Part shown: in pieces, positions 35,456-60,311 of the stretch
Layout: each line of letters opens with the position of its first letter
Numbering within the stretch: position 1 is the first letter of the stretch
Source: Nitrospirales bacterium
GTDB taxonomy: Bacteria > Nitrospirota > Nitrospiria > Nitrospirales > UBA8639
Assembly (NCBI GenBank): GCA_965223295.1
Contig: CBDCWC010000002.1
Span: forward strand, 736,001-800,000
Reading direction: 5' to 3'
Length of the DNA stretch: 64,000 nucleotides
The notes under the pieces: generated by a model
The model's input: only the letters and a program-made list of their open reading frames with translations
Database searches by the model: none
Told to the model about the DNA's origin: nothing
Position numbers and translations under genes: made by a program

Positions 35456-35491
35456 TAGACAAAAATTGGTGACTTGCTGGGTAAATGTCTA
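35456..35491 (-). promoter_or_regulatory. Island motif copy (TAGACAT-N21-TTTGTCTA) upstream of the csbD/pepSY cluster
   Basis: + strand TAGACAAA...AAATGTCTA, 36 bp. Confidence 0.75.
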
Positions 35492-35603
35492 GTACTCAAG
35501 TATCTCGATTCAATAAACACTTTTCACCCAAGCACGAGATTAAGAAAGAGAACTGGATGTTTTTTAGAACCGTAAAAATAAGGAAGGCTACATAGTGGAA
35601 AAA

Positions 35604-36482
35604 CTATGCTGTTGCAGTTTTGTTTTGAGCAGCATTTTCAAGCACGACGTCTACCTCGCCACCAATAAGCAAGACTAATCCACTCATGTACAGCCACAAC
35701 ATAAGCACGATGACTCCCGCGAGTGAACCATAGGCGGCATTGTACGTTCCAAAATTGGCGACATAATATTTGAAGGCTAGAGAAGACAAGAGCCAAAGCA
35801 TCACGGCCACCACTGAACCGGGTGTGATAACACGCCATGAGTGATTAACATTTGGCGCCATATAGTAAATCATACTCACAGCTAACAGCATGAACATGAC
35901 CACAAGCGGCCACTGTACTAAAGACCAACTTATCGTAAAGACGGCGCCGTAGCCTATGGCATTGGCAATCCATTGACTCATATAGCCACCAGCAAGGATA
36001 AGAAATATGGAGAGAATAACGAAAAGAGTGCAAACGATCGTCATAATCATGGCAATGCCTCGGGCTTTCCACAACGGTCGAAAATCCTCGACATTGTAGA
36101 CCGTATTCAGGGTATCAATGATCGCAGCCATTCCTGTGGAGACGGCCCAGAACGTGCCCAGAAAGCTCAAAGATAAAATACCTGCTCCACTCCCTGCCAC
36201 CACTTGATTCAAGTAGGTTTCGATTAACGGCATCGAATCAACTGGAAGAACGGTTTCGAGGTAAGACAATACCTTGGGAAGCATGGATTGAGTGGGCAAC
36301 AATCCGATGAACGCGGTGAGGAACATGAGCGCGGGGAACAGGGCAAGTTGAAAATAAAAGCCCAATTGCGCGGCTCTTCCAAATAGATCATCTTGTTGAA
36401 TTTCTTCCCAAACCTGCTGGAGGAGTTCTATCCAAGATAGACCTTGTAAATTCCAGGTTGATTTTTGCGGCATGGGTTTCAA
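35604..36482 (-). CDS. YihY/virulence factor BrkB family membrane protein
   Basis: AAQLGFY..LALFP, YNAAYGSLAGVIVLMLWLY. Confidence 0.92.
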   Translation of the reverse strand: MKPMPQKSTWNLQGLSWIELLQQVWEEIQQDDLFGRAAQLGFYFQLALFPALMFLTAFIGLLPTQSMLPKVLSYLETVLPVDSMPLIETYLNQVVAGSGAGILSLSFLGTFWAVSTGMAAIIDTLNTVYNVEDFRPLWKARGIAMIMTIVCTLFVILSIFLILAGGYMSQWIANAIGYGAVFTISWSLVQWPLVVMFMLLAVSMIYYMAPNVNHSWRVITPGSVVAVMLWLLSSLAFKYYVANFGTYNAAYGSLAGVIVLMLWLYMSGLVLLIGGEVDVVLENAAQNKTATA

Positions 36483-36582
36483 ATGAACAATGTAAGGAGA
36501 TGAGATAATACCGTGAATAGTCTAAACGCTCTCAAATTCTTGATTTTAAGACATTGAATTAATATCACCAATACTTGGGAAT

Positions 36583-36611
36583 CTGCCTCGAGTCACTATG
36601 ACTCGAGGCAG
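36583..36611. terminator. Perfect 13-bp hairpin downstream of the BON lipoprotein gene
   Basis: CTGCCTCGAGTCA-CTA-TGACTCGAGGCAG; no clear U tract. Confidence 0.5.
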
Positions 36612-36628
36612 GTAACCAAACCACACAG

Positions 36629-36940
36629 TCAGTTCGATTCTATTTGGAGATTATTGTTCACTCTTTTAACGCCATCGACTTGCCCGGCCAGTTGCTCCGC
36701 TTGCTTTTTCGCAGCTTCAGTTTCCACGACACCATTGAGGGTAACAATACCTCTGTCAGTATCCACATCAATCCGTGTTAGCGATGCCATGCTGTCTCCA
36801 GCAAGTTTTGTTTTTACCGAGGACGTAATCATTGTATCATCGATATTCGTACCGGCAGTTTTTCCGGTCATCGCTTGACAGCCCGTCATCATAACTAACG
36901 ATAAGATGATCACACCCAAATAAGTCATCACTCGGTTCAT
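36629..36940 (-). CDS. BON-domain (OsmY-like) lipoprotein
   Basis: Lipobox MTGC; DDTMITSSVKTKL, GIVTLNG, GVKRVNNNL. Confidence 0.9.
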   Translation of the reverse strand: MNRVMTYLGVIILSLVMMTGCQAMTGKTAGTNIDDTMITSSVKTKLAGDSMASLTRIDVDTDRGIVTLNGVVETEAAKKQAEQLAGQVDGVKRVNNNLQIESN

Positions 36941-36985
36941 AGTCTTTCTCCTTAATAAGATTATTAATGATTGGAACGAATGGAA

Positions 36986-37288
36986 TTAATCCAGATTTCT
37001 GTTTGCACCTCTCACTGACTCCTTAGCCTCTGACCGTCCCACTTCGAATGCTTGTTTAGCTTCCTGAATCGCTTCTTCTGCAACTTCTAAAACCTCCTTT
37101 CCTTGTGCCTTGACCAAATCGACAGTTTCCTCAACCGTACTTTTCGCTCTTTGGGCGCCGCGATTAAGATCTCTGCGAAGTTGTCGTCCAGATTTTGGCG
37201 ACAATACTAGTGCAAGCCCCACCCCTAAAAGAAATCCAACAAGTAATGGGATAACGGAAGAACGTTTATCATGTTCATATGTTGTCAT
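36986..37288 (-). CDS. YtxH-domain protein
   Basis: GFLLGVGLALVLSPKSGRQLR. Confidence 0.82.
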   Translation of the reverse strand: MTTYEHDKRSSVIPLLVGFLLGVGLALVLSPKSGRQLRRDLNRGAQRAKSTVEETVDLVKAQGKEVLEVAEEAIQEAKQAFEVGRSEAKESVRGANRNLD

Positions 37289-37340
37289 AAGTTCAGTCCT
37301 CCTAAATTTATGGACACGTCAATAGCGTGAGTCCAGCGAT

Positions 37341-37955
37341 CTAATGAGTATTGGTTAAACGAGCATCCACCGCCTTCCAATCAATATTGGCAAAAAAGGC
37401 TTCGATGTACTTTTGCCGATCAGAAGGAGCATAGTCGATGAGGTAGGCATGTTCCCACACATCTAGCACAAGAATAGGGATAAATCCGGCGACGTTGCCG
37501 CTCTCATGTAGACTAATCCAATGATTAGACAGTCGCCCGTTTTGGGGATTCTGATAACAGATGGCCCACCCCACCCCACGCAGATTCGCTACTCCCACAA
37601 AATCAGCTTTCCAGACCTCATAATCTCCAAAACTTGCATCGACTGTTTTTCGAAAGAGAGATTCTGGTTCAGGATCTTCACGGCCCTCCTTCGTGAGGTT
37701 TTCAAAATAGTATTCGTGCAGGACCATGCCGTTATATTCGAAACCAAGACGCCGCGTGAGTTCCGAATACGCCGGCTTCTCTTCTTGATCAATGTGGCCA
37801 TCTCTTAAGAATTCATTGATTTGATCCATCAGGGAGTTTGTTTGACTGACATATCCTTCATAGAGATTAAAATGCATTTCCAGGCTCTGATTTGAAATAC
37901 CCTTCAATCCGTTAAGATGGAATGATTTCACTGTGTAAGGTGCTGGCTTGATCAT
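37341..37955 (-). CDS. Fe/Mn superoxide dismutase family protein (ChrC-like)
   Basis: H..LYEGYV, NGMVLHEYYF, GVGWA, DVWEHAY. Confidence 0.88.
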   Translation of the reverse strand: MIKPAPYTVKSFHLNGLKGISNQSLEMHFNLYEGYVSQTNSLMDQINEFLRDGHIDQEEKPAYSELTRRLGFEYNGMVLHEYYFENLTKEGREDPEPESLFRKTVDASFGDYEVWKADFVGVANLRGVGWAICYQNPQNGRLSNHWISLHESGNVAGFIPILVLDVWEHAYLIDYAPSDRQKYIEAFFANIDWKAVDARLTNTH

Positions 37956-38099
37956 CGCTGCTCTCCTCAATATTTAGTTGGGTTCATGCCAGAATATTCT
38001 TAGCATTGCCTTTTTGTTCTTCGTGATATGTGACTGCCCGGCACACGTTAGCAATCGACTAATGTCTAGTTATAAATGAAACAACTCCCACTTTCACAA

Positions 38100-38135
38100 T
38101 AGATTTTTTTCCTATTTTCGCAGTCAAAATGTCTA
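38100..38135 (-). promoter_or_regulatory. Degenerate island motif copy upstream of the SOD gene
   Basis: - strand TAGACATTT...AAAATCTA, 36 bp; proximal half degenerate. Confidence 0.5.
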
Positions 38136-38359
38136 TCTCATGCCATGCCCGCAAGATTTATCAACTTGCCTGATACGAAAAAAGTAGCATTTTCCTATAA
38201 ATACTCAGATACTCATCGCACCAATAGCATCACTGAACATTTTGTTCATGTCACAGTTGTTTTAGTCCATTTCACGCATCCCATGCATTTGGTATTTCAT
38301 AATCAAATGGCTTTCGTTCATTTTCTCAAATAATCTTGGCCTAATTTAAGGAGGCATTT

Positions 38360-38599
38360 ATGAGACAAGCGCTTTCACAACCGACACAGCACTTCAGTCA
38401 CATGACTGAGAAGGATCAAGTCTTTGAAAATTATTATCGGTGCGGAGGGATGTTAGTAGACGATCGGTGCTACGACCTTACAAGCAGTGGAATCTTCAAG
38501 ATTGCGACCAAACGGTGCATTCAATGCGGAGATGTGATTGACCCCGTGATTCTTCAACATCGACGTCACTCAAGATTGAGTGAAGCCTACGCAAGTTAG
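38360..38599 (+). CDS. Small zinc-ribbon-like protein
   Basis: RCGGMLV...RCIQCGDVIDPVILQHR; GGAGG RBS; first Cys of the expected CxxC is absent. Confidence 0.65.
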   Translation: MRQALSQPTQHFSHMTEKDQVFENYYRCGGMLVDDRCYDLTSSGIFKIATKRCIQCGDVIDPVILQHRRHSRLSEAYAS

Positions 38600-38636
38600 A
38601 ATATTTTTACGGGAAAGGCAGCACAAAAAATCTTGC

Positions 38637-38672
38637 TAGACAAATTCGATTAACGAGCAGGAAGCATGTCCA
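38637..38672 (-). promoter_or_regulatory. Island motif copy overlapping the 3' end of the anti-sigma-like gene
   Basis: + strand TAGACAAA...GCATGTCCA, 36 bp. Confidence 0.45.
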
Positions 38673-39843
38673 TATTGACGTTTAACTTTTCAACGATATT
38701 TCCGGAACGCAAGCTACCAATGAACTCTTTGGGGTCCACTGGCTCTGGAAGTGGCAAATCCACGTTATACCAATTATCCTTGGGCTTCCCTCTTTTGACT
38801 CGGATCTCATCGAAAAACCCATTAACCTTATCGTCGTCAATGTCTTTCTTAAAGCGTACTTGAACATGACGCGTCACGACTGATGTCGTAATAATTTCGA
38901 TATCGCTTCTCTTCGACAAAGGTTTTAGAATTTTATCTGGTGATTCTGAGTTGGGAACGCTCATATTAAAGGAATACCACCCACCCATCTGCGCATGATC
39001 TTGGGCGGACACATCTTTAAAGAATTTTTCTATCCCCGTAGGCTTCGTTCCTTTTTTGAATCGTACCCACACCGGACGACTTTCCAGAATTCCACTTTTG
39101 AAAGTTTCGGCTTTCTTCTCTAGTAATGTGTTGCCAGTGTCCTGACTCTGCTCACTTCGGCTGACAACTTGAGTTCCTAATGTCTGCTGTTCCCCATCTG
39201 TGCCACTATTTACCGCCATAACCGAGGTCTGATCCAGTCGCTTCTGAATCGCGGTCAGTTGTTGGAGCACTTCCTGAAGCTGATGATCCTTGGAAGCCAC
39301 AAGTGAGCCTCCGTCATTCGAGCGAGTGGAAGTTTGTGCAAATCGGTCAATAACTAGGAACACTACCCCTGCAGCTAAAATGATTTGAGCCGCGAGAGCA
39401 AGCATGGACCATGAACTCGGTTCATTTTTGCCATCTTGTTGCTTTTGCTCGCTTGATTCACTCACTGAGGGCTCTGATGGGATAGCCAGTAGGTTTTTCG
39501 ATGTCAGTTGAACGACACTCTTGTCTTCCTCACGCTGAAGATCGAGTTCAAACACATAATTTCCAGCCTGCAATTCTGCCTCTGCGGACTTCTGACCCTC
39601 AGACGAAAGAGAACCCACTGGAAGCCCGGAAGACGACCGAAGTTCTATAAGACTCGGAGAAGGGCCGACTTGAAAAGTTTTTGTGGCGATAGCTTGAGGA
39701 TGACATTCTAGGGTACCAACGCTCTTGTTATCCACAAAGATTTGAATTGATTCTAGTGATTCAGTTTCTCTTCGGTAGCGTTGATCCCACAATGCCTGAA
39801 TGAGGTATTCCTCGTATGCTTTGAGCTCTTCCTTAGCTTCCAT
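38650..39843 (-). CDS. Single-pass membrane protein, putative anti-sigma factor
   Basis: Central TM (MLALAAQIILAAGVVFLVI), coiled coil, two C-terminal VxVRFKK...FF...WY repeats; overlaps the upstream gene by 11 nt. Confidence 0.55.
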   Translation of the reverse strand: MEAKEELKAYEEYLIQALWDQRYRRETESLESIQIFVDNKSVGTLECHPQAIATKTFQVGPSPSLIELRSSSGLPVGSLSSEGQKSAEAELQAGNYVFELDLQREEDKSVVQLTSKNLLAIPSEPSVSESSEQKQQDGKNEPSSWSMLALAAQIILAAGVVFLVIDRFAQTSTRSNDGGSLVASKDHQLQEVLQQLTAIQKRLDQTSVMAVNSGTDGEQQTLGTQVVSRSEQSQDTGNTLLEKKAETFKSGILESRPVWVRFKKGTKPTGIEKFFKDVSAQDHAQMGGWYSFNMSVPNSESPDKILKPLSKRSDIEIITTSVVTRHVQVRFKKDIDDDKVNGFFDEIRVKRGKPKDNWYNVDLPLPEPVDPKEFIGSLRSGNIVEKLNVNMDMLPAR

Positions 39844-40720
39844 GCTGTTGTACTCCCGAAAAGTTACCCTGCAATATTTTTGATGTTGGGCTTGCCAGTT
39901 GAAGCTGCAATTTCAATTCTAGTGATTCTTCACTTTGAGCACCCTGGACCGTAGACTTGTAGACCATATCGAGACAGGGATAGCACATTGCCAGATGCCA
40001 AATGCGATAATCTTGCCCATAACCATCCGAGAACATCTCTTCCCATTTCTCTTGTGTTTGGCATGGGTAATGCTCTGGTTCACTTTTTCTGTAATGAGAC
40101 TGCACCTCTATCAACAATTTCTGAGCTTCGGGATTAACGATATGAGGTTTGACTTCCAGCTGCTGCTCTAAACTGGCAATCTGTGAAATATCGAGACCAA
40201 TTTCTTGCATGGTTCTATGCCATCCAGATTGTCGCCAACGAGTGAAATTTTTGTAAATCCGCTGACTTTGTTCCTCGGCTAGGCCAAGTAGCTTAATCAC
40301 CTGCGAAGGAGTAAAACTATAAAAATGCGTAAATTGAGCAATGAGGGCATCTCGACTGATTACGGCCCTCGAAGTCAATCCATCAATAAATTTTTCAAGA
40401 GGTGAGTGCGGCGTAGGATGGTAAATAAATGAGTTTGGCTGGCTAAAGTGCTTTGCGACAAAGCTATCCAACAGAAGAACTGGTCGACAAGGAACTTCAT
40501 TGCGGGCATAGACAAGAAAACGTTCAACCAATTCATAGGCTAACCGTAGCGCCAATTTTTCATGGTTCACGTTTTCAGACCAACTATTCGTCTCCTTCAA
40601 TAATTTTTTCGTGTAACTACTTGCTCGGCTTAAAAGTAGAGACATAGACTCTTCCGCGAACTGATCGTACTCGGCTTTAGTCCGGACGATTGTGTCTGAA
40701 ATGACGGGTTGAGTATCCAT
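39833..40720 (-). CDS. Divergent ECF-sigma-like protein with C-terminal HxxxCxxC motif
   Basis: Region-4-like LEKFIDGL..RDALI..FYSFTPSQVIKLLGL..IYKNFTRWR; C...HLAMCYPC; GAGGGA RBS before MDTQP. Confidence 0.5.
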   Translation of the reverse strand: MDTQPVISDTIVRTKAEYDQFAEESMSLLLSRASSYTKKLLKETNSWSENVNHEKLALRLAYELVERFLVYARNEVPCRPVLLLDSFVAKHFSQPNSFIYHPTPHSPLEKFIDGLTSRAVISRDALIAQFTHFYSFTPSQVIKLLGLAEEQSQRIYKNFTRWRQSGWHRTMQEIGLDISQIASLEQQLEVKPHIVNPEAQKLLIEVQSHYRKSEPEHYPCQTQEKWEEMFSDGYGQDYRIWHLAMCYPCLDMVYKSTVQGAQSEESLELKLQLQLASPTSKILQGNFSGVQQHGS

Positions 40721-40874
40721 TCCCTCTGATAATGTTGAATTTTTTTTTATGCGGAATGGAAGCAGTGTACCCAGAACATGAGTACATGGCAACCTGTCAG
40801 GAGTCGAATCCGTCCAGGGAGGAAAGGTTGAGTTCATAATAAATTCCCCAGGATTTACGGACTTTTAAAGTCTA

Positions 40875-41394
40875 TCAGTTCACGGTCTTGGTCGGCTGAG
40901 CTTCTAAGGAAGATGACTTGAGGCATTTGAGAATTTGACGTTCGGCTTCTAGCCAGTCCTCCCATTCTCGACCAGGATCGCATCCCCTCTCTTCAAAGAG
41001 CCTGTACGCCAAGCTTTGGATGTCCTGGTGAAAAAAAGAGCGAATTGCGGCATCAATCGGTCCTCCCAGAAACGGTTCTTCATTTCCTCTCGGCCCGCCG
41101 ACAACTTGGTCAGCTCCCAAACGAAGCACTTCGGGAACAGCATTCCTGACGGAAGCCCCAGCCACGATAAGAATCTTTCCCATGAATCCCTGCTGACGTA
41201 GATTCTCCACAATCTTCAGAGCGTTAGGATCCACTATATATAAGTCCAATACAACAACATGGGGATCAGTCTCTAGCACCAAATGTGCACACTTCCTGAC
41301 TATGGGGAGAGACGACGACTTCATAACCTTGCTGACTGAGAAACTCTGTGAGTTGGTTTCGGAGCGATTTATGGTCTGTCGCTACGACAATCAT
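40875..41394 (-). pseudogene. Atypical receiver domain + DUF2934 protein, +1 frameshift near 41289
   Basis: Upstream frame MIVVATDHKSLRNQLTEFLSQQGYEVV joins HLVLETDPHVVVLDLY; C-terminal IQSLAYRLFEERG..PG..EDWLEAE (DUF2934 pattern). Confidence 0.75.
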
Positions 41395-41514
41395 GAGCTT
41401 TCTCACCCCAAGATACGTGGCACCATCGAAAACAATTTTCTACTCTTAAGACTGCACCAAACTTATCTTTTCCGTTTAGTCGGTAACTTAGCTACAGAAT
41501 AAAGAATTATTCAA

Positions 41515-41550
41515 TGGACAAACCTGTCTACCCCATTTGCAAAATGTCCA
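41515..41550 (-). promoter_or_regulatory. Island motif copy upstream of the receiver/sigma-like operon
   Basis: - strand TGGACATTT...TTTGTCCA, 36 bp. Confidence 0.8.
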
Positions 41551-41579
41551 GCTCTAGGCTGAATCCGTCACGAAAATGA

Positions 41580-41615
41580 TGGACATTAGGTAAATCGTGA
41601 ATCCAGATTTGTCCA
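41580..41615 (+). promoter_or_regulatory. Island motif copy upstream of the Pro-rich ORF
   Basis: TGGACATTA...TTTGTCCA, 36 bp. Confidence 0.8.
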
Positions 41616-41693
41616 TTGAGTTAAGTTGACCTAAAACAGAAAATGAAGGAAAGAAAAGGTAACCATCGAGCAATGACGGATGAGAGGGGAAAT

Positions 41694-41924
41694 ATGGGAA
41701 AAAACAACCCAGCCAAGGAACCTCAAAAACTCAAGCGGGACGATCCACCCATACAAGAGCCACCGAATGAGCCGAAAAAGTCTCCAGTGGAGCCTCCTAA
41801 GCGCACACCTCAAAAACCACCCGTTGAGCAACCACCCACGCCCTCGCCACCTAATGAACCACCATCGAAAGACCCTCAACCCATCGGAGATCCACCACCT
41901 ACGAGTCAACCAGTCATGACGTAA
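41694..41924 (+). CDS. Small Pro-rich disordered protein
   Basis: Repeated (P/S)P(I/V)xEPP units; GAGGGG RBS. Confidence 0.6.
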   Translation: MGKNNPAKEPQKLKRDDPPIQEPPNEPKKSPVEPPKRTPQKPPVEQPPTPSPPNEPPSKDPQPIGDPPPTSQPVMT

Positions 41925-42079
41925 ACGTTTTTGGTGATGTTTGTATTGTTATGAAAATATAGAAAACGTTTATTGAATTAAGGAACTCTGTCGGAAGGGG
42001 CATGTCAAAACTTTGGATATATCCAAGTGAAAGTCCTGAGTTACTTGTTCATCTAGGAGTTCGTAATACTTTTCAATGC

Positions 42080-43210: not shown

Positions 43211-43422
43211 AAAATCGCCTCATCTTCAAATAGGAAATAACTAGACTGGATATCTGCTAACCTGGGGCAGATTCTGTACTTGATACTGAAAGAAAGCGCT
43301 TAATCTTCTGATTACAGACCAAACGTACCTCAAATATTTAATCAAGATCCCGTTCACAAATTTAGAGAACACACCATAGCGTATTGTACGCTACTTTTAA
43401 ATGAACTAACTCAACAGAATGA

Positions 43423-43458
43423 CAGACATTTCGTGCCTCCAGGGTAGCGATTTGTCCA
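43423..43458 (+). promoter_or_regulatory. Island motif copy
   Basis: CAGACATTT...TTTGTCCA, 36 bp, 59 bp before ATG 43517. Confidence 0.75.
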
Positions 43459-43516
43459 CTAGCCAAAATTTGGAGATCTCATTTACGATTAGGCGTTTAC
43501 ATCTGATGAGGAGAAA

Positions 43517-43813
43517 ATGACTAATCCACAAAAGGCAAACTTGATCAAGCCATGGATTAATCCTGCGGAACGAATTACGGTGGACTTTACAGATATCCGA
43601 GGGTTAACTGCGCAAGTGCTCGGATGCACGGAGAATGTGGTGCATTTAGCTTTTCCTGAAACATTTCCTCACATGAAAGATCGAGTCACGATTCCCTTAC
43701 GGAAGGTGCATGTAGGAGAAGATCGTAGCCATTACACTCGAGATCCACAGTCTCCCATTCAATGGGGGCGACTTCGTTTGCGGATCGAACAAAAGCATCC
43801 CGATGCTCTCTAA
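43517..43813 (+). CDS. Hypothetical protein
   Basis: GAGGAG RBS; 98-aa beta-rich ORF. Confidence 0.7.
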   Translation: MTNPQKANLIKPWINPAERITVDFTDIRGLTAQVLGCTENVVHLAFPETFPHMKDRVTIPLRKVHVGEDRSHYTRDPQSPIQWGRLRLRIEQKHPDAL

Positions 43814-43938
43814 CGCCTCCCCAACGCCTCAATAATACACCATGGTGCATAGCCGTGTTCTCAGTCCTTGGACAATTCTCCCCTATTCTCTGTTCTTCTA
43901 GCCAGAAAGCAGGATGTAGCCGGTTAAAGACTTAGCGT

Positions 43939-43974
43939 TGTACATCCTGACAACTTTCTCAGGGTATTTGTCCA
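43939..43974 (+). promoter_or_regulatory. Island motif copy
   Basis: TGTACATCC...TTTGTCCA, 36 bp; TGnTACACT downstream (-10 at 43998-44003). Confidence 0.7.
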
Positions 43975-44098
43975 TAATTAACCGATTTTCATTTTGCTAC
44001 ACTCAATCACTTGCCTATTCGTTAAGACAAATTTGCTTCAGCTCTAACGACTTGACATGCTGTGGCTCATGAAGGTGCACGAATAAATAACATTTCAT

Positions 44099-44575
44099 AT
44101 GGATGGAGAAATAGATTTGCTGTTTGAACTCACATTGGCGAGCATGATGGTTGCATTCATTATATTAGCTATTTGTTTGGCAGTGACCGTAATCCAAATT
44201 AAAAAAACGTTCATCCAGGCTGAGCGATTCTTCTCTCAACTCAACACGGATATACCGAAAGTGCTCAATAATTTTCACGTCACGAGCGAAAATATTCGCC
44301 TCATGACCCAGCAGACGCGGGACGGAGTTGGCCATGCTTCGGTTCTTTTCCATGCTGTCGGAGAAATTGGAACGACTGTGAATCAAGTACATGCAGCTTT
44401 GCGTGAAGGAGGGAAAAGACTAATGAACAGCTTCGACGTCATAAAGGCTAGAATCGTGGCCACAGTAACCTACAAACGACAACGATGCAGTGATTTCCAT
44501 AGATCTCCCATAACAAAGCCAACATATATTCCTCAGCCAGACAGAAGAGTAAAGCAGGCATTGACAGGGCACTGA
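44099..44575 (+). CDS. DUF948 paralog, degenerate C-terminus
   Basis: Aligns with 3181-3597 (QIKKT..QAER, ENIR..T.Q.R, AVG.IG.TVNQVH). Confidence 0.75.
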   Translation: MDGEIDLLFELTLASMMVAFIILAICLAVTVIQIKKTFIQAERFFSQLNTDIPKVLNNFHVTSENIRLMTQQTRDGVGHASVLFHAVGEIGTTVNQVHAALREGGKRLMNSFDVIKARIVATVTYKRQRCSDFHRSPITKPTYIPQPDRRVKQALTGH

Positions 44576-49662: not shown

Positions 49663-49692
49663 GGGATCTCTCCTTTAAATTTAAACCATTCA

Positions 49693-49783: not shown

Positions 49784-50311
49784 TTACTTCCGTTGTTCAA
49801 CAGGCATACCTGAATCGACTGCATCAAGGGCAGATCCACCAGAGATTGCACTCATGGCTCGATCACGTTCTTGACGGATATTTGATGTTTCTTGTTGAAG
49901 AGCATCTCGCTCTTTCAAATACTGATCCCGCTCTTTAACTAATTGTTTAGTTTCTTGGTTTCCGTTTTCGTTAGCGCTCTTAGCCTGAATAGATCCGCCC
50001 TTACTAGCGCTGGCCTGAGCCTGTTGCGCTTCATCACGTTCCTTTTTGGCTTGATCACGTTCCTTTTCAGCCTGTTCTTTGCTTTTCTTAGCTTCATCTC
50101 GTTCTCGAATTAGCTGATCGCTCCATGTTGCGCCAAACTTTGCACTAGGATGTTTCTTAACGTCAGACATGCCACTAGCTGACGAGGGTGACGTGGAAGA
50201 ACCGACCGACTTGTCCATGGCCACAGCTAATTGCACCGCTCCTGATGCGACAAATAATCCACACATTGCTAACGCGAAAATTGGAGATTTACCCTTTTTC
50301 ATGATGACCAC
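49784..50311 (-). CDS. Exported coiled-coil protein
   Basis: Signal peptide; heptad (K/R/Q)ERD repeats. Confidence 0.7.
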   Translation of the reverse strand: MVIMKKGKSPIFALAMCGLFVASGAVQLAVAMDKSVGSSTSPSSASGMSDVKKHPSAKFGATWSDQLIRERDEAKKSKEQAEKERDQAKKERDEAQQAQASASKGGSIQAKSANENGNQETKQLVKERDQYLKERDALQQETSNIRQERDRAMSAISGGSALDAVDSGMPVEQRK

Positions 50312-50595: not shown

Positions 50596-50631
50596 TGGAC
50601 AAAAATGGGAATATACGTTCAAAGATGTCCA
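50596..50631 (-). promoter_or_regulatory. Island motif copy
   Basis: - strand TGGACATCT...TTTGTCCA, 36 bp; TGnTAGAAT 24 bp downstream. Confidence 0.75.
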
Positions 50632-50951: not shown

Positions 50952-51008
50952 ATAAAAAAAGAGAAGAAGGTTCGCAAGCAAAAAGATAAAAAGATTGGAG
51001 AGCCTACT

Positions 51009-52358: not shown

Positions 52359-52415
52359 AGGTGAAGCGAGATTTCGTGCGTGACTTTCAATTCGGAAATA
52401 TTCGATCAAACTCTC

Positions 52416-52715
52416 AATCCACTGAAAGTGGCCACTCAGTGACGCGATGATGGACCAGGTAATGGCGAAGGGACATTAAAGATACGACAATCCACAATGC
52501 AACGTGTGCACGGTCCACATTATCAACGAGTCAGATTTAAACGAGTTATAAATTTCCTTAATCAAGTTGAGTTGAGCAAGGACGAGCAACAACAAAAAGA
52601 CTGTAGGCAATAGACTATAGTGAGGGATTCCGATTAACCCGACCGTGATCGTGATGTACATCACGCCCACTGCAGTAAATCGTGCCCAGTATTCCTTTGC
52701 TTTGTCTTTGCCCAT
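52416..52715 (-). pseudogene. Small membrane protein, paralog A, internal TAA at 52476
   Basis: MGKDKAKEYW...TITVGLIG...; past the stop reads IIASLSGHFQW as in paralog B; 3' end approximate. Confidence 0.55.
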
Positions 52716-53010
52716 GCAGGGCAGGGCCCTTTCTTCAGGTCTTGGCGCGTCCCCTCTTCGACTCTCAACAATACTTGTTTTAATACTCGTACAACGAGAG
52801 AAAATTCTATGTATTCTCTTAGCAAGCATTTTGATTTGAAATCTCAATCCCAGTCCAACTTCCCAACTACTCATAAACTGGGGGCAACTTTGGTCTCTGC
52901 ACACCAAACTATCGGTTACTGGAGGTCTTTATCAAAGAAGACCATAGACATATCTAGTCGAAGTTAAACGAGTTCAGCCGGCCACTTACTCTCCCGCGCT
53001 GGAAAATCAG

Positions 53011-54099
53011 CTAGATGCCAGCCGTGGCAGGAGAATGCGACGATGCTGTTCGAATAAGATTGTGGGTAAATCGTAACTTCTCGACGACTGGAGGAAGGAG
53101 AATTTCTGGCATCAAATCAATTAATCCCATTTCACGATTCATTTCGTTTAGTACAAGCCCCAGGCTTTGATAGGATTGAATCATTTTTTTCATCTGAGCT
53201 TTGGTCGGATCGACAGCATTTTTCAGGAAATTATGCCTTGCTGTATCTAAGACACTCACCATGGCAAGATATTTGGCAAACGTTTCGGCAAAATCTTCCC
53301 ATGGGTGCATCGTGGCATACGCACTGATGAAATTAGAATGCCAATTTGGTGGTGGTCCCTCTTTATAGTGTCGTTCCAGAGCGTGCGTATAGGTCGGGTT
53401 TTGATAGTCCCCAAATATCTGAATAAATTGAGCCTCTTGCTGATCTTGTATCAACAGTTCCCAATAATAATGTGCAATCTCATGTCGGAAGTGACCAATA
53501 ATGGTCCGATGGGCTTCTCCAAACGAAACACGTAATTTTTCACGTTCTACATCTTCAGCCTCTCGAAGGTTAATCGTAATTTTTCCGTGAAGATGACCCG
53601 TATGAACCTGCTCATGATCGCCCATTGTCTTCCACTGATTACCAGAGAAATGATTATCGGCCTTGAAGTCAAATGATAGAGGGAGGTGAAAGCCGTCTTC
53701 AGCATTACCGTAAGGGAGTTTTAACAAATCCAAGGTATACAACAGACGCCTCTTCGCGGTTTCTAGGCGATACCAACGTTCTCGGTTTCCTTCTACAGAC
53801 AGATCTGGAATCGTTTCATTGTAACGGCAATAATCACACAGTCTGGTGCCGGATACTTCATTGGGATTAGCCAACAGACACCGATTGCATACGTGTTCAA
53901 CGTGATAATTATGGCATTTAACGAGTGGTGAATGACAATCTCCAAATCCACATTGAAAGGTTCCATCCGCACGGTCGAGCAACCCGTTCAGCCGCTGGCA
54001 TACCGGGCACCAACCAACCTGAGAACCACAAGCCACACACTGCGTATTTTCGAAAAATAAAACATTGCTGCAATGGCAGACAAATCTATTCATATACAT
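53011..54099 (-). CDS. Zinc-ribbon + putative zinc-binding metallopeptidase
   Basis: Cys-rich N-terminus; GHFRHEIAHYYW; YATMHPWEDFAE. Confidence 0.85.
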   Translation of the reverse strand: MYMNRFVCHCSNVLFFENTQCVACGSQVGWCPVCQRLNGLLDRADGTFQCGFGDCHSPLVKCHNYHVEHVCNRCLLANPNEVSGTRLCDYCRYNETIPDLSVEGNRERWYRLETAKRRLLYTLDLLKLPYGNAEDGFHLPLSFDFKADNHFSGNQWKTMGDHEQVHTGHLHGKITINLREAEDVEREKLRVSFGEAHRTIIGHFRHEIAHYYWELLIQDQQEAQFIQIFGDYQNPTYTHALERHYKEGPPPNWHSNFISAYATMHPWEDFAETFAKYLAMVSVLDTARHNFLKNAVDPTKAQMKKMIQSYQSLGLVLNEMNREMGLIDLMPEILLPPVVEKLRFTHNLIRTASSHSPATAGI

Positions 54100-54164
54100 C
54101 TATCCTTTCTTTCAACGAGTGAGTTCTACCGTGCAACTCATAGGTTCCAAGTAGAAAATACACA

Positions 54165-54467
54165 CTACACCCATTGGAAGTGACCGCTCAGTGAAGCGAT
54201 GACGCCCCAAACAATGGCCACAAGACCCAGGAGCTACGGCAAGCCATAGCGCACAACTTGACGAGTCTGGATCATCTTTGTGTTCGGTTCAAATGGATTG
54301 TATAGTTCTTTAATCGAATACAGTTGACTACACACAAATAACAGTAAAAAGCCCGCTCCCCATCGGTTGTAGTTAAGTGGGCCCACCAACCCTACCGTGA
54401 TCGTGAGATACATCGTTCCCACAGAGTTAAATCGAGAGCACCACTCTTTTGCTTCATCTTTGTCCAT
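54165..54467 (-). pseudogene. Small membrane protein, paralog B, internal TAG at 54234
   Basis: MDKDEAKEWC...TITVGLVG...YGLP*LLGLVAIVWGVIASLSGHFQWV*. Confidence 0.55.
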
Positions 54468-54542
54468 ATGAGTGCAACGTGTAACTTTTAGAGCATACTA
54501 CCAGGACACATTCAACATACTATGGATAGACAAACGATTTTT

Positions 54543-56045
54543 TTAACGTCTACTGAATACACTCATAAACGGACTCAAGATCAGCACAAGCACCGCTAAA
54601 ATTTCGAGCCGTCCCATCCACATCAGCAGCATCAACGTGGTCTTTGCCATACCTGACAGATCAGTGCTCGTGATACCTACACTCAGACCAACCCCCCAAT
54701 GCCGACGTAGCCTCGAATAAAATTTCATATAAGCTATATCGATCGCCGAGCACAACAAAAAGGATGAGTGTGCCGGTGACCAACGTCACCATGTAGAGGC
54801 ATGCCAACAAGGCAGCGGAGCCCACGCGACGCATCGCGACAGCCTCTTCCACCTCTTCCCCATCGTAGAAATACTGTTCTTCATGCTCGTCTTTGATCCA
54901 AAAGCTTCGGAGCCTCCAAAGCATGGCTTTATATAACCACGTCACTCGGCTCACTTTTAGCCCATCAGTTGTGGAACCGGCCATTCCCCCGATAAACATC
55001 CCGGGCGTGAGAATGAACAGTGCGGGTTGGGACCACATGGCAATCTCCACAGAGCTAAATCCGCAAGTGCCTAGTGCGGAGGTCCATTGAAAGAGCTGAT
55101 CAATGACTGACTCTTGGACATTTCCTACAAATTGCATCGTCAGTAAAACAAGCAGTCCAGAGACAAATAACACAAGAAATGCTCGCAATTGAGATTGTTG
55201 AATCACAAATCGTAGATCACCTCGTAAGAGTAATGCATGATGAATCGGAAAGCTTATGGCTCCAAGCATCATGATGAGGATGGCCGCAGATTTGACGACA
55301 TCGTCATGAGCCCAAAAACTGTGTGAGGTGATGGTGAATCCTCCAGTGGCAATGCCGGTCATCCCATGGTTAACAGATTCCCACCATGGCATACCTGCAA
55401 AATAGAACATTCCGATGGCTAGGAGCGTATACCCAACAAATAGCCCCCAGATTCTTCGAGCTGACTCTTTGATGCTGTCACCTAATTGTGAAGACCGTGT
55501 TTCAGCGGAGTACAGGGCATAGTTATCTTCAGACGGTTCGATTAATGCCAAGGCCAAGACAATGACCCCCACGCCACCTACCCATTCATTCACACTACGC
55601 CACCACTGAAGGCTCATCGGCAACTCACTTGGATCCTTGGTCATGATCAGACCCGTGCTCGTGAATCCAGACATTGATTCAAACAAGGCGTTCAATGGGT
55701 GACTGAAGGCACGGGTGGTCTCACTCAGTTCATTGCCCATATGTGCAGCCATAAAGAACGGAAATGCACTGAAAATGCGATCAAGAGCCAGCCCAGTGCT
55801 ACGACAATCATGGGCTGAGATGAGGGGCTTGGGCCACCTTGAGGACAACAGCGATAGAGGAGTTGTCCGCCACCAAGGCCCAGCAGCACCGAAATCAGAA
55901 ACCCTGGCAGCGTAAACCATTCTTCAGATCCTATGACGATGAAAATGTTGACAAGCGCCATCGCACCAGGGATCGGCAATAATAGACCTAGATCATGGCC
56001 AATCGCCGTCAACGAAAGTGGATCATTATCGTGTTTCATATGCAT
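54543..56045 (-). pseudogene. trkH: TrkH potassium uptake permease, two frameshifts
   Basis: FESMSGFTSTG, ATGGF, GTCGF, FEATSALG, MWMGRLEI spread over three frames; breaks near 55772 (T-run) and 54692 (G-run). Confidence 0.85.
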
Positions 56046-56135
56046 TCATGAGGGTTCAACGAGGAATTCACTGGGAGGGAGAAGTATGCTCCTACAAAGC
56101 TGTTGTATTATGCTTGATACTTCCTAAATCTGTAC

Positions 56136-56171
56136 TGGACATTTCAGAAGATGCGTTCTGTCTTTTGTCCA
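56136..56171 (+). promoter_or_regulatory. Island motif copy upstream of hemerythrin 1
   Basis: TGGACATTT...TTTGTCCA, 36 bp. Confidence 0.8.
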
Positions 56172-56265
56172 TATCTCGTGCAAGCACCTCTATGTTGTAC
56201 TGAGAATTAATCGAGCTTCATTATTTCCTAACTATCTCAATCACAATTACTTCAAGGAGTAACAC

Positions 56266-56694
56266 ATGGACATCTTCCAAACGCTGAAAGTTGATCACCA
56301 GGAAGCTAAAAAGTTATTTGAGGATCTCGAACAGACTTCAGACAAGGACGATAAGACTCGCGACAAGCTTTTTGGGGAACTCAAAGATGCACTCGAAGCC
56401 CATAGCAAGGCGGAAGAACAAGTGTTCTACACACCGCTCAAGCAGCAGGAAGAGACAAAAGGAAAAATCCAACATGCCAACAAAGAGCATGAAAAAGTCG
56501 CGAAGACACTAGAAGACCTGGAAAACATGGATAAGGATGATAAACAATGGCTTAAGGATGTAACCCAATTGAAGGAAGACGTACAGCACCATGTCAAGGA
56601 AGAGGAAAACGAAATTTTTCCCAAAGCCCAGAAGATCTTTTCTGAGCAACAAGCTAAAGAAATGGCGATACAATTTAAAAAAGCTAAGAATTAA
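56266..56694 (+). CDS. Hemerythrin/HHE-domain protein
   Basis: LK.DH, HSKAEE.VFY, EH, HHVKEEE..IF. Confidence 0.9.
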   Translation: MDIFQTLKVDHQEAKKLFEDLEQTSDKDDKTRDKLFGELKDALEAHSKAEEQVFYTPLKQQEETKGKIQHANKEHEKVAKTLEDLENMDKDDKQWLKDVTQLKEDVQHHVKEEENEIFPKAQKIFSEQQAKEMAIQFKKAKN

Positions 56695-56804
56695 ATCGTA
56701 CTAAACACGTAATCTGAAACGCTGTGGTTACAATGTAAAGGTGGCATACTCAGCCTTCAAATAAATGATGTGTGTATAGAACGTGGAAACTTTAAAGAAA
56801 GAAG

Positions 56805-58904
56805 ATGGCTCCTGACGATCTTGACAAGCAGGAGCAAAACACCTTAACCGATCCGTCCAGGCAGGCGCCTACCGAAGGCAAAGCTGTTGAGGACTTTTTC
56901 GGCTCCGACGAGATTTTTCTGCGGGTCCTGGCTACCGCTCACCACGAGCTGCACCAGCCCATCCACACGTTTGCTTGGGGAGCTTTAGCCGCAGGTTTGT
57001 TCATTGGTTTTTCCTTTCTTGCCAGAGTCATGCTTACCACGGGACTGCCTGACGGCAGGGTCTACGAATTGCTCGGTAGCCTGCTCTATCCTGTAGGATT
57101 TATCTTCGTCATCTTAGGTCGTTACCCCCTTTTTACTGAAAATACATTAACGCCCGTGACCCTAGTTCTCACTCGTTTTGCCAGCCTGCCAGATCTTTTT
57201 AGAGTATGGGGCCTAGCGTTAACACTCAATTTGGTCGGCGGCCTTCTGTTCGCGCTATTCCTTGCGACCACAGATGTTTTCTCTCATGAGGCTGCTGAGA
57301 TTGCTAAGAAATTTGGTGAGCATCTCTTCAAAGCAACGTGGACCATCGCTTTTTTTAAAGGGGTGTTAGCAGGTTGGCTTCTCGCAGGCCTAGTGTGGTT
57401 AGTGCATGCTGCCAGAGATACCCTTGCGCGTCTGTTGTTGATCTGGATGGTTATCTACTTCCAAGTCTCGGCCGATCTATTTCATTGCATTGCGGGATCT
57501 GTCGAAGCACTGTATGTCGTGTTTTCTGGTGACGCAAGTCTAGGCAGTTATTTTGTAAGCTTCCCCGTCAAGCGGACAGGTCATAACTAGAGTGTTCTGG
57601 TGTTGGTTGATAATAGGCACAGGGCGGTGTTCCCCGTAGCGCGTCATGTGGGCGGTGTTCATTGTAGATGGTCATCCACTCGGACGTGAGTTCCCGCACT
57701 TCCTCTAAACTCCGAAACAGATAGAGATTCAGCACTTCATTCCGATAGGTGCGATTGAATCGTTCAATAAATGCATTCTGTGTGGGACAACCGGGTTGAA
57801 TGTGATAGATCAACACGCGATTGGCTTTTCCCCAATCTTTTAGTGCCTGTGAGAGAAATTCTGGTCCGTTATCAACCCGAATCATGTGAGGTAACTCCCG
57901 CTCAGTCTTCAAGCGGTCCAACACGCGGATAATCCGTTCAGCTCTTAGAGAGGTATCAATCTCAATCGCCAAGACCTCCCGATTGAAGTCATCGAGGATA
58001 TTGAAGGTGCGAAACCGCGTGCCGTGATACAAGGTATCGCTCATGAAGTCGGCTGACCACACCTCATTGGGACCTTCTGGCACAAACACCGGCCAGGAAG
58101 GACGCTTGGGCAGCTGGCGTCTGGTGCGACGAGGCTGATTGTGTCCTAACTGCCGATAGACGCGGTACACCCGTTTGTGATTCCAGACATGTCCGAGGAC
58201 TCGCAATCGCCGGATATATTTCCAGATGCCCCAGCGCGGGTACTGCTCCACTAACTGATTCAGGGCCTCAATAATTTCCTGATCACGGATCTGCCAATCA
58301 ACGGGCGCTTGGTAATACGCCGACCGAGAAAATTTGAGAGCCACACACCCTCGTGTGATCGAGACGCCATGTGTCTCTTGTAGGGACTGAATGGCCTCCC
58401 GTTTCTCCGCCGGCGTTAGAGCTTTTTTTCGATCAAATCCTTCAGCGCCCGATTCTCTAAGGCCAGATCCGCATACATCCGTTTAAGCTTCGAGAGTTCG
58501 CCTTCTGTTTCTTTGAGGCGTTTCAGATCCGAGGCTTCTAAGCCCCCGTACTTCGCTTTCCAATTGTAATAGGTCGCATCACTGATGCCATGCTCCCGGC
58601 ACAAGTCTTTGATCTTGATGCCGGCGTCACCTTGTTTCAAGATGGCGACGATTTGGGTTTCGCTGAATCGACTCGTTTTCATGAGAACCTCCTGGGATCA
58701 TTCTGCCAGAACGCTCTACTTTTGGTCTGTTCGGATTTAGGGGAAGCTTACAATTTCATTCGCTTTTTGGTACCAGTCACGTTGGGCAACACCGTCGGCG
58801 GCGTAGTATTTGTGGCAATTTTGAACTACGCGCGGGTCAGTGCCGACAAAGGGGATCACGGCGAACGACTATCGTGGCGCGAGTGGGTAGTTGGACGAAC
58901 ATAA
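56805..58904 (+). pseudogene. Formate/nitrite transporter family (YfdC-like) interrupted by IS3
   Basis: YPVGF, LFTENT, HCIAGS; after the IS continues FLVPVTLGNTVGG. Confidence 0.88.
57554..58752 (-). mobile_element. IS3-family IS, copy 2 (1199 bp)
   Basis: Same IRs and identical ORF translations as 28932-30130; 4-bp TSD ATTT. Confidence 0.96.
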
Positions 58905-59216
58905 AATCCTTTCCATAATTTCTCAAATAACTTTCTAAAGTGGAATCGATGAACGAGAGTTATCCTCGAACTAGATCGATACAAAGATGTAATATTTGTT
59001 TAATATTTAGCATATAACAATACCTGAGAAGCATAGGACCTCTATCATGGTAGCTATCCTCGTGACCTTGCGATGATAAGAACACTAAAGAGCATCAAAG
59101 CCCTGTATTTAGCAGTTGCAGGCCAAGGTCATGGCTTATGACCTTACTATAAAAAAGCCAACATTAATACATTCTAGAATTGCCTTTTGTTGATTAAAAA
59201 ACCTTATAAAAAACAC

Positions 59217-59251
59217 TAGACATTTTTAAGCTTATAGTTACGATTTGTCCA
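59217..59251 (+). promoter_or_regulatory. Island motif copy upstream of hemerythrin 2 (35 bp)
   Basis: TAGACATTT...TTTGTCCA with a spacer 1 bp shorter. Confidence 0.7.
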
Positions 59252-59342
59252 TAAAGCATAAGCTCATGAATATGCTGGAATATCACTTTGATAAATTGGG
59301 GCGACTGCTCTCTACCGTCATCATTTATTCAAGGAGGAAGAC

Positions 59343-59771
59343 ATGGACATCTACCAAGCGCTGAAAGAAGATCATCAAAAAGCCAAGAAACTTTTCGATA
59401 AACTTGAGCAACCACCACATATGAACGGGGATTCTCGAGATAAGTTATTTAGAAAGCTCAAAACTGCACTTGAAGCTCACAGTGATGCTGAAGAAGCCGT
59501 GTTCTACGCCAAGTTAAGACAACACGGAGAAACAGAAGAAAAAATTGAACATGCAATTAAGGAGCATGACAACGTCGCGAAAATCCTTGAAGAACTTGAG
59601 AGTCAAGATAGAAATAGTAGTAAATGGCTGAACAGATTGATGTATTTACATGATGATGTCCAGCACCATATCTATGAGGAAGAGGGAGCAATCTTCAACA
59701 AAGCGCAAGGCATTTTTTCTAAGCAACAAGCGGAAGAAATGGGACAAGAATTCCAAAAGGCAAAGCCATAA
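59343..59771 (+). CDS. Hemerythrin/HHE-domain protein
   Basis: Paralog of 56266-56694, same length (142 aa) and His/Glu ligands. Confidence 0.9.
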   Translation: MDIYQALKEDHQKAKKLFDKLEQPPHMNGDSRDKLFRKLKTALEAHSDAEEAVFYAKLRQHGETEEKIEHAIKEHDNVAKILEELESQDRNSSKWLNRLMYLHDDVQHHIYEEEGAIFNKAQGIFSKQQAEEMGQEFQKAKP

Positions 59772-59879
59772 CAGACCTTAAAAATTGAGGTAAAAGTTTA
59801 TTGTTGAGTTAAATGTGGCACAAAGGTCTTATTTTTCGTCTAGACCGCCTTTCGTGAGAATGATGGAACTCGACCCTAC

Positions 59880-60190
59880 ATGAATGAACAATAACGACGC
59901 TTGTGCGAAGAACATGTGTTATTTAAGGTGTCTCAACGATGTTATTTGATTGCACGCCCAAGCCTACTGGGACGACTTCACACATCGAGGCATTGATGTA
60001 CGTTTCGAAGGCAATCATGCATGCGAATGACCTTGACACTAATCTCTTGCGCCCAGTTGATTTCATGCTGCATCCTGAAGTCCATTCTGATATGACCGAG
60101 CGTGGGTTCGATCAGAACGATTGGCCAGAATTAGGCAATAATTTTTGAACGCTGCCACTTTGATCACCAAAAATCCAGCCCACCGGTTGA
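59880..60190 (+). pseudogene. Flavodoxin / NADPH-dependent FMN reductase remnant
   Basis: MNEQ*..LC, FDCT.K..SH.EALM, LRPVD..PEV..DMTE.G...DWP resembles that family's N-terminus; stops and frameshifts. Confidence 0.5.
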
Positions 60191-60275
60191 TATATATACT
60201 CTGATAGACCAACGATAGCGCTACCACAAATGGGGAAGTCAATTGGGTATATGAATGTCCTCTAGCAAATATGAT

Positions 60276-60311
60276 TAGACTTTCTTCATTGAAATATGGA
60301 TTTTTTGTCCA
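60276..60311 (+). promoter_or_regulatory. Island motif copy upstream of the PRC-barrel/catalase genes
   Basis: TAGACTTTC...TTTGTCCA, 36 bp. Confidence 0.7.

Follow-up and report, generated by a model that had tools for sequence, protein, structure and literature searches.

A spaced dyad ahead of stress genes in a Nitrospirales bacterium and a predicted sigma-like protein as its candidate reader

Which protein reads a 36-bp spaced inverted repeat that recurs ahead of stress-type genes in a Nitrospirales bacterium? The question is raised by a stretch of 64,000 nucleotides (nt), positions 736,001 to 800,000 of contig CBDCWC010000002.1 (here C2) of assembly GCA_965223295.1, referred to below as the window. 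A first-pass annotation, made by a model from the letters of the window, had noticed 11 copies of the pattern TRGACAT-N21-TTTGTCYA, hereafter the dyad, and had proposed that they mark a stress regulon, recognised either by a regulator whose half-sites lie about three helical turns apart or by an unusual sigma factor. Nitrospirales oxidise nitrite in soils, oceans, and wastewater plants; to our knowledge, the switching of survival genes has scarcely been described in this group, which is hard to study genetically. The dyad sites, the geometry of the promoters next to them, the target genes, their conservation, and the linkage of the sites to a gene in their midst, X, were computed directly. From these results we infer, with a probability of about 0.5, that the X protein is the dimeric reader of the dyad and an activator of a general-stress regulon that includes its own operon.

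The dyad, its promoters, and its target genes

When up to two mismatches were allowed, the dyad pattern was matched 10 times in the window. In 100 dinucleotide-preserving shuffles the mean was 0.52 and the maximum four; none of the shuffles reached 10, and spaced pairs are thus in clear excess over shuffled DNA. Nine of the 11 copies seen in the first-pass annotation were among the matches (in Table 1, all dyad sites other than 38234 and 59217). The 35-bp copy at 59217(+) is real, with a spacer of 20 nt. The copy at 38100(−) held up in part: its left half is exact, but its right half keeps only four of eight bases, and it scores below 12 bits in the matrix described below. As a dyad site it is doubtful; a TTG directly follows it, and TATAAC lies ~25 nt downstream. 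One copy absent from the earlier list was found at 38234(+), with two mismatches and 22.5 bits. The earlier statement that the first 24 kb hold no copy agrees with a best matrix score of 13.4 bits in window 1–35455. Rfam models found two tRNAs only in the window, and no RNA family at the dyad sites.

The preference for one spacing could be observed in the whole 3.78-Mb genome, where GACA-N22-TTTGTC occurs 31 times, versus 6–16 times for every other spacing from 15 to 30. The full pattern with at most one mismatch gave 24 genomic matches, versus 0 for a reversed control. A position matrix was built from 20 sites, so that those 20 are circular in the genome scan made with it. The scan was bimodal: 23 positions scored 20.5–32.9 bits, three of them outside the training set, and the next-best scores were 19.9 bits (one sequence in a repeated element, present twice) or lower. 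Together with the 35-bp variant, these 23 strong sites make up a total set of 24.

Base counts over the 23 strong sites showed that only the ends of the element are conserved. Positions 1–9, on the left, carry T (21 sites), A or G (12 and 11), G (20), A (23), C (23), A (21), T (20), T (15), and T (16). The 18 inner positions, 10–27, are unconserved. Positions 28–36, on the right, carry T or A (13 and 9), T (22), T (23), T (22), G (23), T (23), C (22), C or T (16 and 7), and A (20), and are followed at positions 37–39 by T (17), T (18), and G (12). The two hexamer cores, TRGACA and TGTCYA, form an inverted repeat with 30 bp from centre to centre. The asymmetry noted earlier (ACAT versus TTTG) is borne out by position 7, which is T in 20 of 23 sites where the mirror of the right half would need A. 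Spacers and flanks differ among the copies, as had been said of the spacers, and the half-sites alone are kept.

The bases that follow the dyad have the arrangement of a promoter. TTG stands immediately 3′ of the 36-mer (offset 0) in 9 of 23 sites, and TAnnnT starts at offset 23, 24, or 25 in three, six, and two sites, respectively (11 of 23), with 0–1 occurrences at most other offsets; the −10-like hexamers that the first-pass annotation placed 23–25 bp downstream thus reappear in the aligned set. A G is found two bases ahead of the T of TAnnnT in 10 of 23 sites, as in extended −10 elements. TTG at offset 0 was also seen in other genomes of the order, in 5 of 7 sites of G047, 5 of 13 of G110, and 3 of 10 of G132. 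The order dyad, TTGnnn, 17–19 nt, TAnnnT therefore corresponds to a promoter of the σ70 type, in which the dyad covers about −72 to −37. We conclude from the base sequence that the dyad promoters are of this predicted type, with a weak TTG as the −35 element and G-n-TAnnnT as the −10 element.

Other ways of reading the sites were rejected. σ54 promoters carry GG-N10-GC at −24/−12, and no such element was found in the position counts over the dyad and the 35 nt after it. The consensus of σEcfG, GGAAC-N16,17-CGTT, was not found in the aligned sites or their flanks either, and the position counts argue against it. A LysR-type site was rejected because the inner 18 positions are unconserved and the island described below has no LysR gene; paired T-N11-A dyads over ~35–40 bp were likewise not seen in the dyad alignment. 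Finally, the apparent start codon GGAGGCACAATG that follows the dyad in genus g2, and that would place the dyad inside a 5′ leader, was rejected since its ATG is not conserved; CACAATAGG or CAGAATAGG replaces the apparent g2 start codon at loci L018, L022, L027, L029, and L031.

The claim that the copies point towards the adjacent gene extends to the total set, as all 24 sites face an open reading frame (ORF) with a Shine–Dalgarno sequence. Eighteen of the 24 lie 57–145 nt ahead of the start chosen by script; two long site-to-start distances are artefacts of start choice, the ORF tables placing a CheB-CheR gene 132 nt and a receiver gene 190 nt after their sites. Target products were assigned by Pfam. 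The targets include a CsbD gene followed by a PepSY gene and a second CsbD gene; the operon of a receiver-DUF2934 gene, X, and its neighbour Y; genes for DUF948, two hemerythrins, and a PRC-barrel protein with catalase; and further PRC-barrel and BON proteins (one with six BON domains) and small membrane proteins of the DUF1328 type. Several small proteins without a family are also among them. The degenerate site precedes sod, with YtxH, BON, and BrkB genes after it. An operon at C2:810179–817173, with one dyad at its head, encodes a 1128-aa CheB-CheR-PAS protein and two PAS hybrid histidine kinases, with no DNA-binding response regulator near it, and a single-domain receiver (C2:847834–848238) has a dyad site of its own. 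Judged by these families, the target content is that of general-stress, osmotic, and oxidative genes. The idea that the copies form a stress regulon whose sites abut the −35 position is thus supported computationally, by gene content, by the TTG/TAnnnT geometry, by the restriction of the sites to stress promoters, and by conservation in other genera. A second YtxH and DUF948 pair lies outside the island, between gatB and gatA (window 2880–3597), and has no dyad site; some paralogues of regulon genes are thus controlled in another way.

Linkage of the dyad to X and the island

X was found in 49 of 121 sampled genomes of the order (5/47 in family f1, 37/47 in f2, 6/21 in f3, 0/5 in f4, plus the genome of the window, G000). 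Among the 30 best-scoring X loci, which come from three families, 300 nt around the X start were searched, and GACA-N24/25-TGTC was present in 25, always 52–103 nt ahead of the matched region; a reversed control gave 2 and shuffles a mean of 0.45. The five remaining loci have a single base change in one half-site core (L019 and L021), a degenerate right half (L044), or only one half-site kept (L034 and L036, genus g17). As between the copies of one genome, the half-sites are conserved and the spacers diverge between genera.

The phyletic distribution was followed with the pattern RGACAW-N21,22-TTTGTCY, counted in the 121 genomes, each with its reversed control, and split by the presence of X; the pattern had been derived from G000, which was excluded from the group with X. 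The 48 genomes with X gave 171 matches versus 52 for the control, and the 72 without X gave 84 versus 137. The same could be observed within genera: 57 versus 15 in five genomes of genus g1 with X and 4 versus 8 in three without; 23 versus 0 in one genome of g11 with X and 9 versus 5 in three without; 5 versus 1 in one genome of g3 with X and 1 versus 3 in six without. Thus, the excess of the dyad tracks the presence of X. No excess was seen in genus g5 (10 genomes, all with X; 7 versus 13), because there the left half-site reads YCGACAAG, which the pattern excludes, nor was any seen in three genomes of g19 with X (5 versus 6).

Large predicted regulons were seen in other genomes as well. G110, from another genus, has 23 matches versus 0 in the control, and 19 of them lie at C1:757–854 kb, around its X gene; 10 of 11 matches in G132 lie at C17:68–115 kb; and G047, from another family, has 12 versus 0. 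The genes behind the sites in other genera encode BON, hemerythrin, PRC, BrkB, DUF1328, CsbD, and receiver-DUF2934 proteins, and the G047 regulon also includes an S30AE-CSD ribosome hibernation factor and a small, 78-aa GerE/LuxR-type protein. At the loci examined in genus g2, X, Y, and the site alone are common; no other regulator is conserved beside them.

In G000, 21 of the 23 strong sites lie at C2:771456–848361, that is, within 77 kb or 2% of the genome, from window position 35456 to the end of the window and 48 kb beyond. The remaining two, C3:118399 and C3:121627, flank a paralogous X-Y operon. The 40 nt at the 5′ end of a tRNA-Pro gene have an exact copy 96,870 bp downstream, at a place where no tRNA is detected by aragorn, and the tRNA-Pro therefore marks the left end of the segment. 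A truncated phage-type integrase ORF (166 aa) lies beside the tRNA-Pro gene, the pair spanning window 24398–24986. All 21 C2 sites lie between the repeats, where the GC content is 43–46% versus 47% in the genome. The segment looks like an integrative island of ~97 kb, situated on the unusual 5′ side of the tRNA. Since the C2 sites all fall between the tRNA-Pro/integrase pair and the 40-bp repeat, a single integrative island appears to carry the regulon together with its candidate regulator and sensors. No classical DNA-binding regulator was found in the island by Pfam.

Several other features of the segment and its surroundings were noted. A formate/nitrite transporter gene (window 56805–58904) is split by an IS3-type insertion sequence (IS) element with transposase ORFs at 57568–58344 and 58416–58682; profile positions 1–214 of the transporter fall in ORF 56805–57590 and positions 214–239 in ORF 58590–58904. 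The same 258-aa transposase ORF is present at window 28946–29722 and at C2:829072–829848, with equal length and identical Pfam scores. Just outside the island, window 14907–21023 encodes a 2038-aa two-module protein resembling nonribosomal peptide synthetases (AMP-binding, condensation, carrier, and thioesterase domains), then an ABC exporter. The 79-aa ORF in Table 1, which has a dyad site of its own, has four Cys (C-x10-C ... C-x2-C) and no family, and is antisense to the transcript expected from site 38637(−).

Table 1. Dyad sites and associated genes in the window (window coordinates; distances to gene starts)
Feature	Position	Strand	Remarks
tRNA-Pro(TGG)	24398..24474	-	left end of the apparent island; 5′ 40 nt recur at C2:857306-857345
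dyad site	35456..35491	-	89 nt ahead of csbD (35166-35384); 31.2 bits
degenerate copy, doubtful	38100..38135	-	130 nt ahead of Fe/Mn sod (37341-37970)
dyad site	38234..38269	+	90 nt ahead of 79-aa Cys-rich ORF (38360-38599)
dyad site	38637..38672	-	overlaps last 14 nt of Y (397-aa ORF); next same-strand gene is sod, 681 nt away; a site directly after Y is also seen in genus g2
gene Y	38650..39843	-	397-aa single-pass membrane protein, no family
gene X	39833..40837	-	334-aa Nitrospirales-specific protein, candidate dyad reader
first gene of X-Y operon	40875..41324	-	N-terminally short receiver domain + DUF2934; receiver domain fuller in G110 orthologue
dyad site	41515..41550	-	ahead of receiver-X-Y operon (autoregulatory position); 32.5 bits
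dyad site	41580..41615	+	57 nt ahead of Pro-rich 83-93-aa ORF; divergent from 41515 site
dyad site	43423..43458	+	58 nt ahead of 98-aa ORF (43517-43813), no family
dyad site	43939..43974	+	ahead of DUF948 gene (44099-44575)
dyad site	50596..50631	-	ahead of gene for 175-aa secreted coiled-coil protein (49784-50311); near-identical counterpart in G110
dyad site	56136..56171	+	94 nt ahead of hemerythrin 1 (56266-56694)
dyad site, 20-nt spacer	59217..59251	+	91 nt ahead of hemerythrin 2 (59343-59771)
dyad site	60276..60311	+	96 nt ahead of PRC-barrel gene (60408-61175), then catalase (61242-62723)

Protein X and the readings of the dyad

X belongs to a family that was invisible to all profile libraries tried. 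It matched no Pfam family at E ≤10 and no NCBIfam family; a genome search with PF04542 returned 14 sigma genes, X not among them; hhalign against six extracytoplasmic-function (ECF) sigmas of the same genome gave a probability of 0.2; and a profile search of the PDB and a protein atlas search gave nothing relevant and no usable match, respectively. A homologue search found 180 proteins at E ≤0.001, all those with names being “hypothetical protein” of Nitrospira, Nitrospirales, Nitrospiraceae, or Nitrospirota, with one exception from a metagenome-assembled genome labelled Bdellovibrionales. In a hidden Markov model search of 1.84 billion representatives, 43 X clusters were obtained at E ≤0.001, many of them fragments, with no bridge to sigma families; for the eight clusters compared with Pfam models, no score rose to a curated cut-off. 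The family itself is well defined: 43 columns are invariant in 40 sequences, among them P116-C117-R118-P119, R193-x-x-K196-N197-x-x-R200-W201-R202-x-x-G205-W206, and H281-x3-C285-x2-C288. In the tail, C259 is also invariant in the 40 sequences, and H256 nearly so.

An AlphaFold model of X is all-helical, with a mean predicted local confidence (pLDDT) of 75. Residues 45–138 matched sigma2 domains in 12 of the 20 top rows (Z 5.9–7.1); the best match was SigH (Z 7.1, root-mean-square deviation 2.5, 72 residues aligned), and the others included SigK, AlgU, SigR, BldN, the sigma-like domain of PhyR (rank 8), sigma-E, and SigW. Residues 140–220, modelled alone, matched sigma4 domains in 15 of the 20 top rows, at Z of only 2.9–4.0 (SigW, SigL, SigD, SigK, SigH, SigB, SigR region 4, and sigma-28). 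In Foldseek searches of the PDB, neither the whole model nor residues 140–315 gave a match at E ≤0.001, and for the whole model the list of weak matches was headed by ECF sigmas (E 0.3–3). The His/Cys domain at the C terminus had no clear fold match and no Pfam match to the zf-HC2 profile. Its H-x3-C-x2-C motif, with an upstream His/Cys ligand ~25 residues before, corresponds to the signature of zinc-binding anti-sigma (ZAS) domains. X has no transmembrane part of its own. The model thus depicts X as an ECF-sigma-like sigma2 domain, then a sigma4-like domain and a His/Cys tail; the Z values alone would not prove homology, and sigma-likeness is argued because the family of matches is consistent and the domain order correct.

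Y, which follows X, has a single transmembrane helix and no Pfam or NCBIfam family, nor any anti-sigma family. In families f1 and f2 its place after X is conserved; G047 lacks it. Its position suggests an anti-sigma-like partner of X. The second X-Y copy of G000 (C3:118399–122427; locus L016, 8399–12427) is shorter: the dyad at C3:118399 is followed by a small membrane protein that resembles DUF1328 proteins, a 281-aa paralogue of X (65% identity), a Y paralogue (395 aa), the dyad at C3:121627, and two csbD genes, and there is no receiver-DUF2934 gene. Mannosylglycerate-synthase-like glycosyltransferase genes lie directly after X-Y in G141 (L088, 3202–4434) and directly after X alone in G047 (L090, 7511–10032), both from other genera, a gene order which hints that compatible-solute synthesis may be part of the X/Y unit in these two genomes.

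The dyad may then be seen as the binding site of a positive regulator, situated at an invariant location from about −72 to about −37. Such a location, in contact with a weak −35 element, is the hallmark of activation of the class II type, and this type of activation is therefore the one proposed here; the inverted repeat implies two copies of one DNA-reading domain. X is ranked first as the reader because it has the sole DNA-binding-type fold in the conserved core of site, X, and Y. A sigma4 domain reads about 8 bp, the size of a half-site. Each of the two inverted TRGACA half-sites would thus be bound by one copy of the sigma4-like helix-turn-helix of X, the copy nearer the promoter would contact RNA polymerase beside the −35 element, and X would activate its own operon as well. 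X would probably be held in check by Y and possibly by its own tail, through zinc or redox sensing, and the input may come from the CheB/CheR-PAS protein, the hybrid kinases, and the receiver proteins of the island; these routes of control are suggested by gene order and motifs. In its fullest form, the proposal is that X derives from a sigma factor and is no longer a promoter-specificity subunit, but a dimeric, sequence-specific activator that spans half-sites three helical turns apart, docks polymerase at −35, is gated by a zinc/redox tail and a membrane partner, and serves as the general-stress master switch of Nitrospirales. We put this whole picture forward tentatively, as a possibility well short of an even chance.

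Several observations weigh against X as a dimeric activator. Its fold Z values are in a range that may reflect a common helical arrangement, and the sequence methods (Pfam, NCBIfam, PDB profile, hhalign) detect no relationship between X and sigma factors. Genus g5 has X and a site ahead of X, yet no wider excess of the pattern, and genus g17 has X with a half-conserved site only. Related genomes are not independent samples; moreover, joint presence or absence of X and dyad is expected whatever protein binds, because X shares the island with most sites. Finally, we know of no sigma-fold protein that acts as a dimeric activator.

One alternative is that another transcription factor, encoded elsewhere, binds the dyad, with X and Y being only conserved members of the regulon, for instance a PhyR-like sigma mimic and its partner. 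PhyR, itself among the fold matches of X, is an example of a sigma-like fold that does not have to bind DNA; X is linked to the dyad by position and co-occurrence; and a GerE/LuxR-type protein is a regulon member in G047. No such GerE gene was seen in the G000 island, however, the genus g2 loci have nothing but X, Y, and the site in common, and genomes without X show no dyad excess even when they are of the same genus. We give this alternative a real but minor chance.

It is also conceivable, if rather unlikely, that X is a true, very divergent sigma factor of the ECF type. TTTGTCYA would then be its −35 element and TAnnnT its −10 element, and the distal half-site would be accessory or bind a second, free X. 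The sigma2-plus-sigma4 fold in the right order agrees with this, as does the pair of a sigma gene and a membrane protein gene with a conserved motif ahead of its own operon, the classic ECF signature. ECF sigmas with Cys-rich or ZAS-type C-terminal extensions have been described as well (in the part of PMC8999054 consulted). A monomeric sigma leaves a conserved inverted half-site 30 bp upstream unexplained, however, and the Sigma70_r2 and r4 models miss X. TGTCYA ends 23–25 nt ahead of TAnnnT, versus ~16–17 nt in ECF promoters, no base is conserved 16–19 nt after the half-site, and a TTG with a normal spacing of 17–19 nt follows the dyad. The sigma2–sigma4 linker is short in the X model.

A role for the dyad as the operator of a repressor, X or another protein, that holds the stress genes off until released is improbable. 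The site does touch the −35 region, and autoregulated repressors are common, but it precedes a weak −35 (TTG in 9 of 23) at a distance that varies by no more than 1–2 nt, and it never overlies the −10 element or the start, a pattern of class II activation rather than of occlusion. A derivation of the copies from a repeated or mobile element, as relics without regulatory role, can be practically dismissed: they do cluster on an island with IS copies, but their spacers and flanks are unrelated, their orientation always follows the downstream gene, and between genera the half-sites are conserved while the spacers diverge.

The dyad points to an undescribed general stress switch in Nitrospirales nitrifiers, and the results define a testable circuit consisting of a DNA site, about two dozen promoters, a candidate regulator with a membrane partner, and candidate sensor kinases. 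Stress regulons in metagenome-assembled Nitrospirales genomes can already be predicted from the dyad. If X does bind the dyad, the known roles of sigma-fold proteins will be extended; should the dimeric-activator reading be true, X would represent a bacterial transcription factor of a new class, and a 97-kb integrative island of this genome would hold both the switch and all of its regulon. The tRNA-flanked location of the regulon suggests joint mobility of an entire stress programme and its regulator.

Comparison with known systems

The closest counterpart in gene content is the alphaproteobacterial general stress response, in which PhyR, NepR, and σEcfG act in turn (as presented in the parts of PMC3892343 and PMC7083833 consulted). 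The two share targets of the CsbD, BON/OsmY, catalase, PRC-barrel, and Dps type, and in both an autoregulated gene for a protein with a sigma fold (for X, both the autoregulation and the fold are predicted) lies beside that of a small or membrane partner, with histidine kinases and receivers nearby. Unlike the PhyR cascade, the system described here belongs to Nitrospirales, X has no sequence similarity to its counterparts and no receiver domain, and the cis element is not a −35/−10 pair of the EcfG kind but a 36-bp dyad upstream of a predicted σ70-type promoter.

Among sigma factors, X resembles those ECF groups that carry C-terminal extensions, namely the CorE-like ECF44/ECF238, with a Cys-rich domain, and ECF48/52/53, with a fused ZAS zinc finger and a membrane part (described in the portions consulted of PMC8999054 and PMC5826349). 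As in CorE-like and ECF52-type sigmas, the sigma2–sigma4-like core of the X model is followed by a conserved extension bearing Cys and His. In contrast to them, X is missed by the Sigma70_r2/r4 and zf-HC2 models and has no transmembrane part, and the promoter geometry is not that of ECF sigmas. Membership in the ECF family is defined by sequence-detectable Sigma70_r2/r4 domains, which X lacks, and by −35 and −10 elements ~16–17 nt apart, an arrangement that the dyad promoters do not have.

As to site architecture, class II sites abutting the −35 element include those of CRP and FNR at −41.5 and of lambda cI at PRM, and the sites of LysR-type tetramers include the OxyR footprint, which covers ~37 bp from −35 to −75. 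The dyad is like these in that its proximal half-site is centred near −40 and touches a weak −35, and in that it spans ~36 bp, to about −72. It differs from these sites in that only the outer half-sites of 7–8 bp are kept, with no inner dyads and no T-N11-A boxes, and no protein of the LysR or CRP family is linked to it. The DosR/DevR dormancy regulon of mycobacteria is controlled through a 20-bp palindrome with GGGAC half-sites. Here too the regulon is of a stress or dormancy type and includes genes for hemerythrin-like and hibernation proteins; GGAC forms the core of the half-site, and the proposed reading domain is a helix-turn-helix related to sigma4. Unlike in DosR/DevR, 30 bp separate half-sites that are adjacent there, and X has no receiver-GerE architecture.

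Our literature search found no description of the dyad motif, of X, or of a general-stress regulator in Nitrospira, and the main text of the N. marina proteome paper lists stress enzymes and no regulator (PMC8115632). Thus, the general-stress regulon is known in kind, while the regulator family is new and the architecture of its site unusual.

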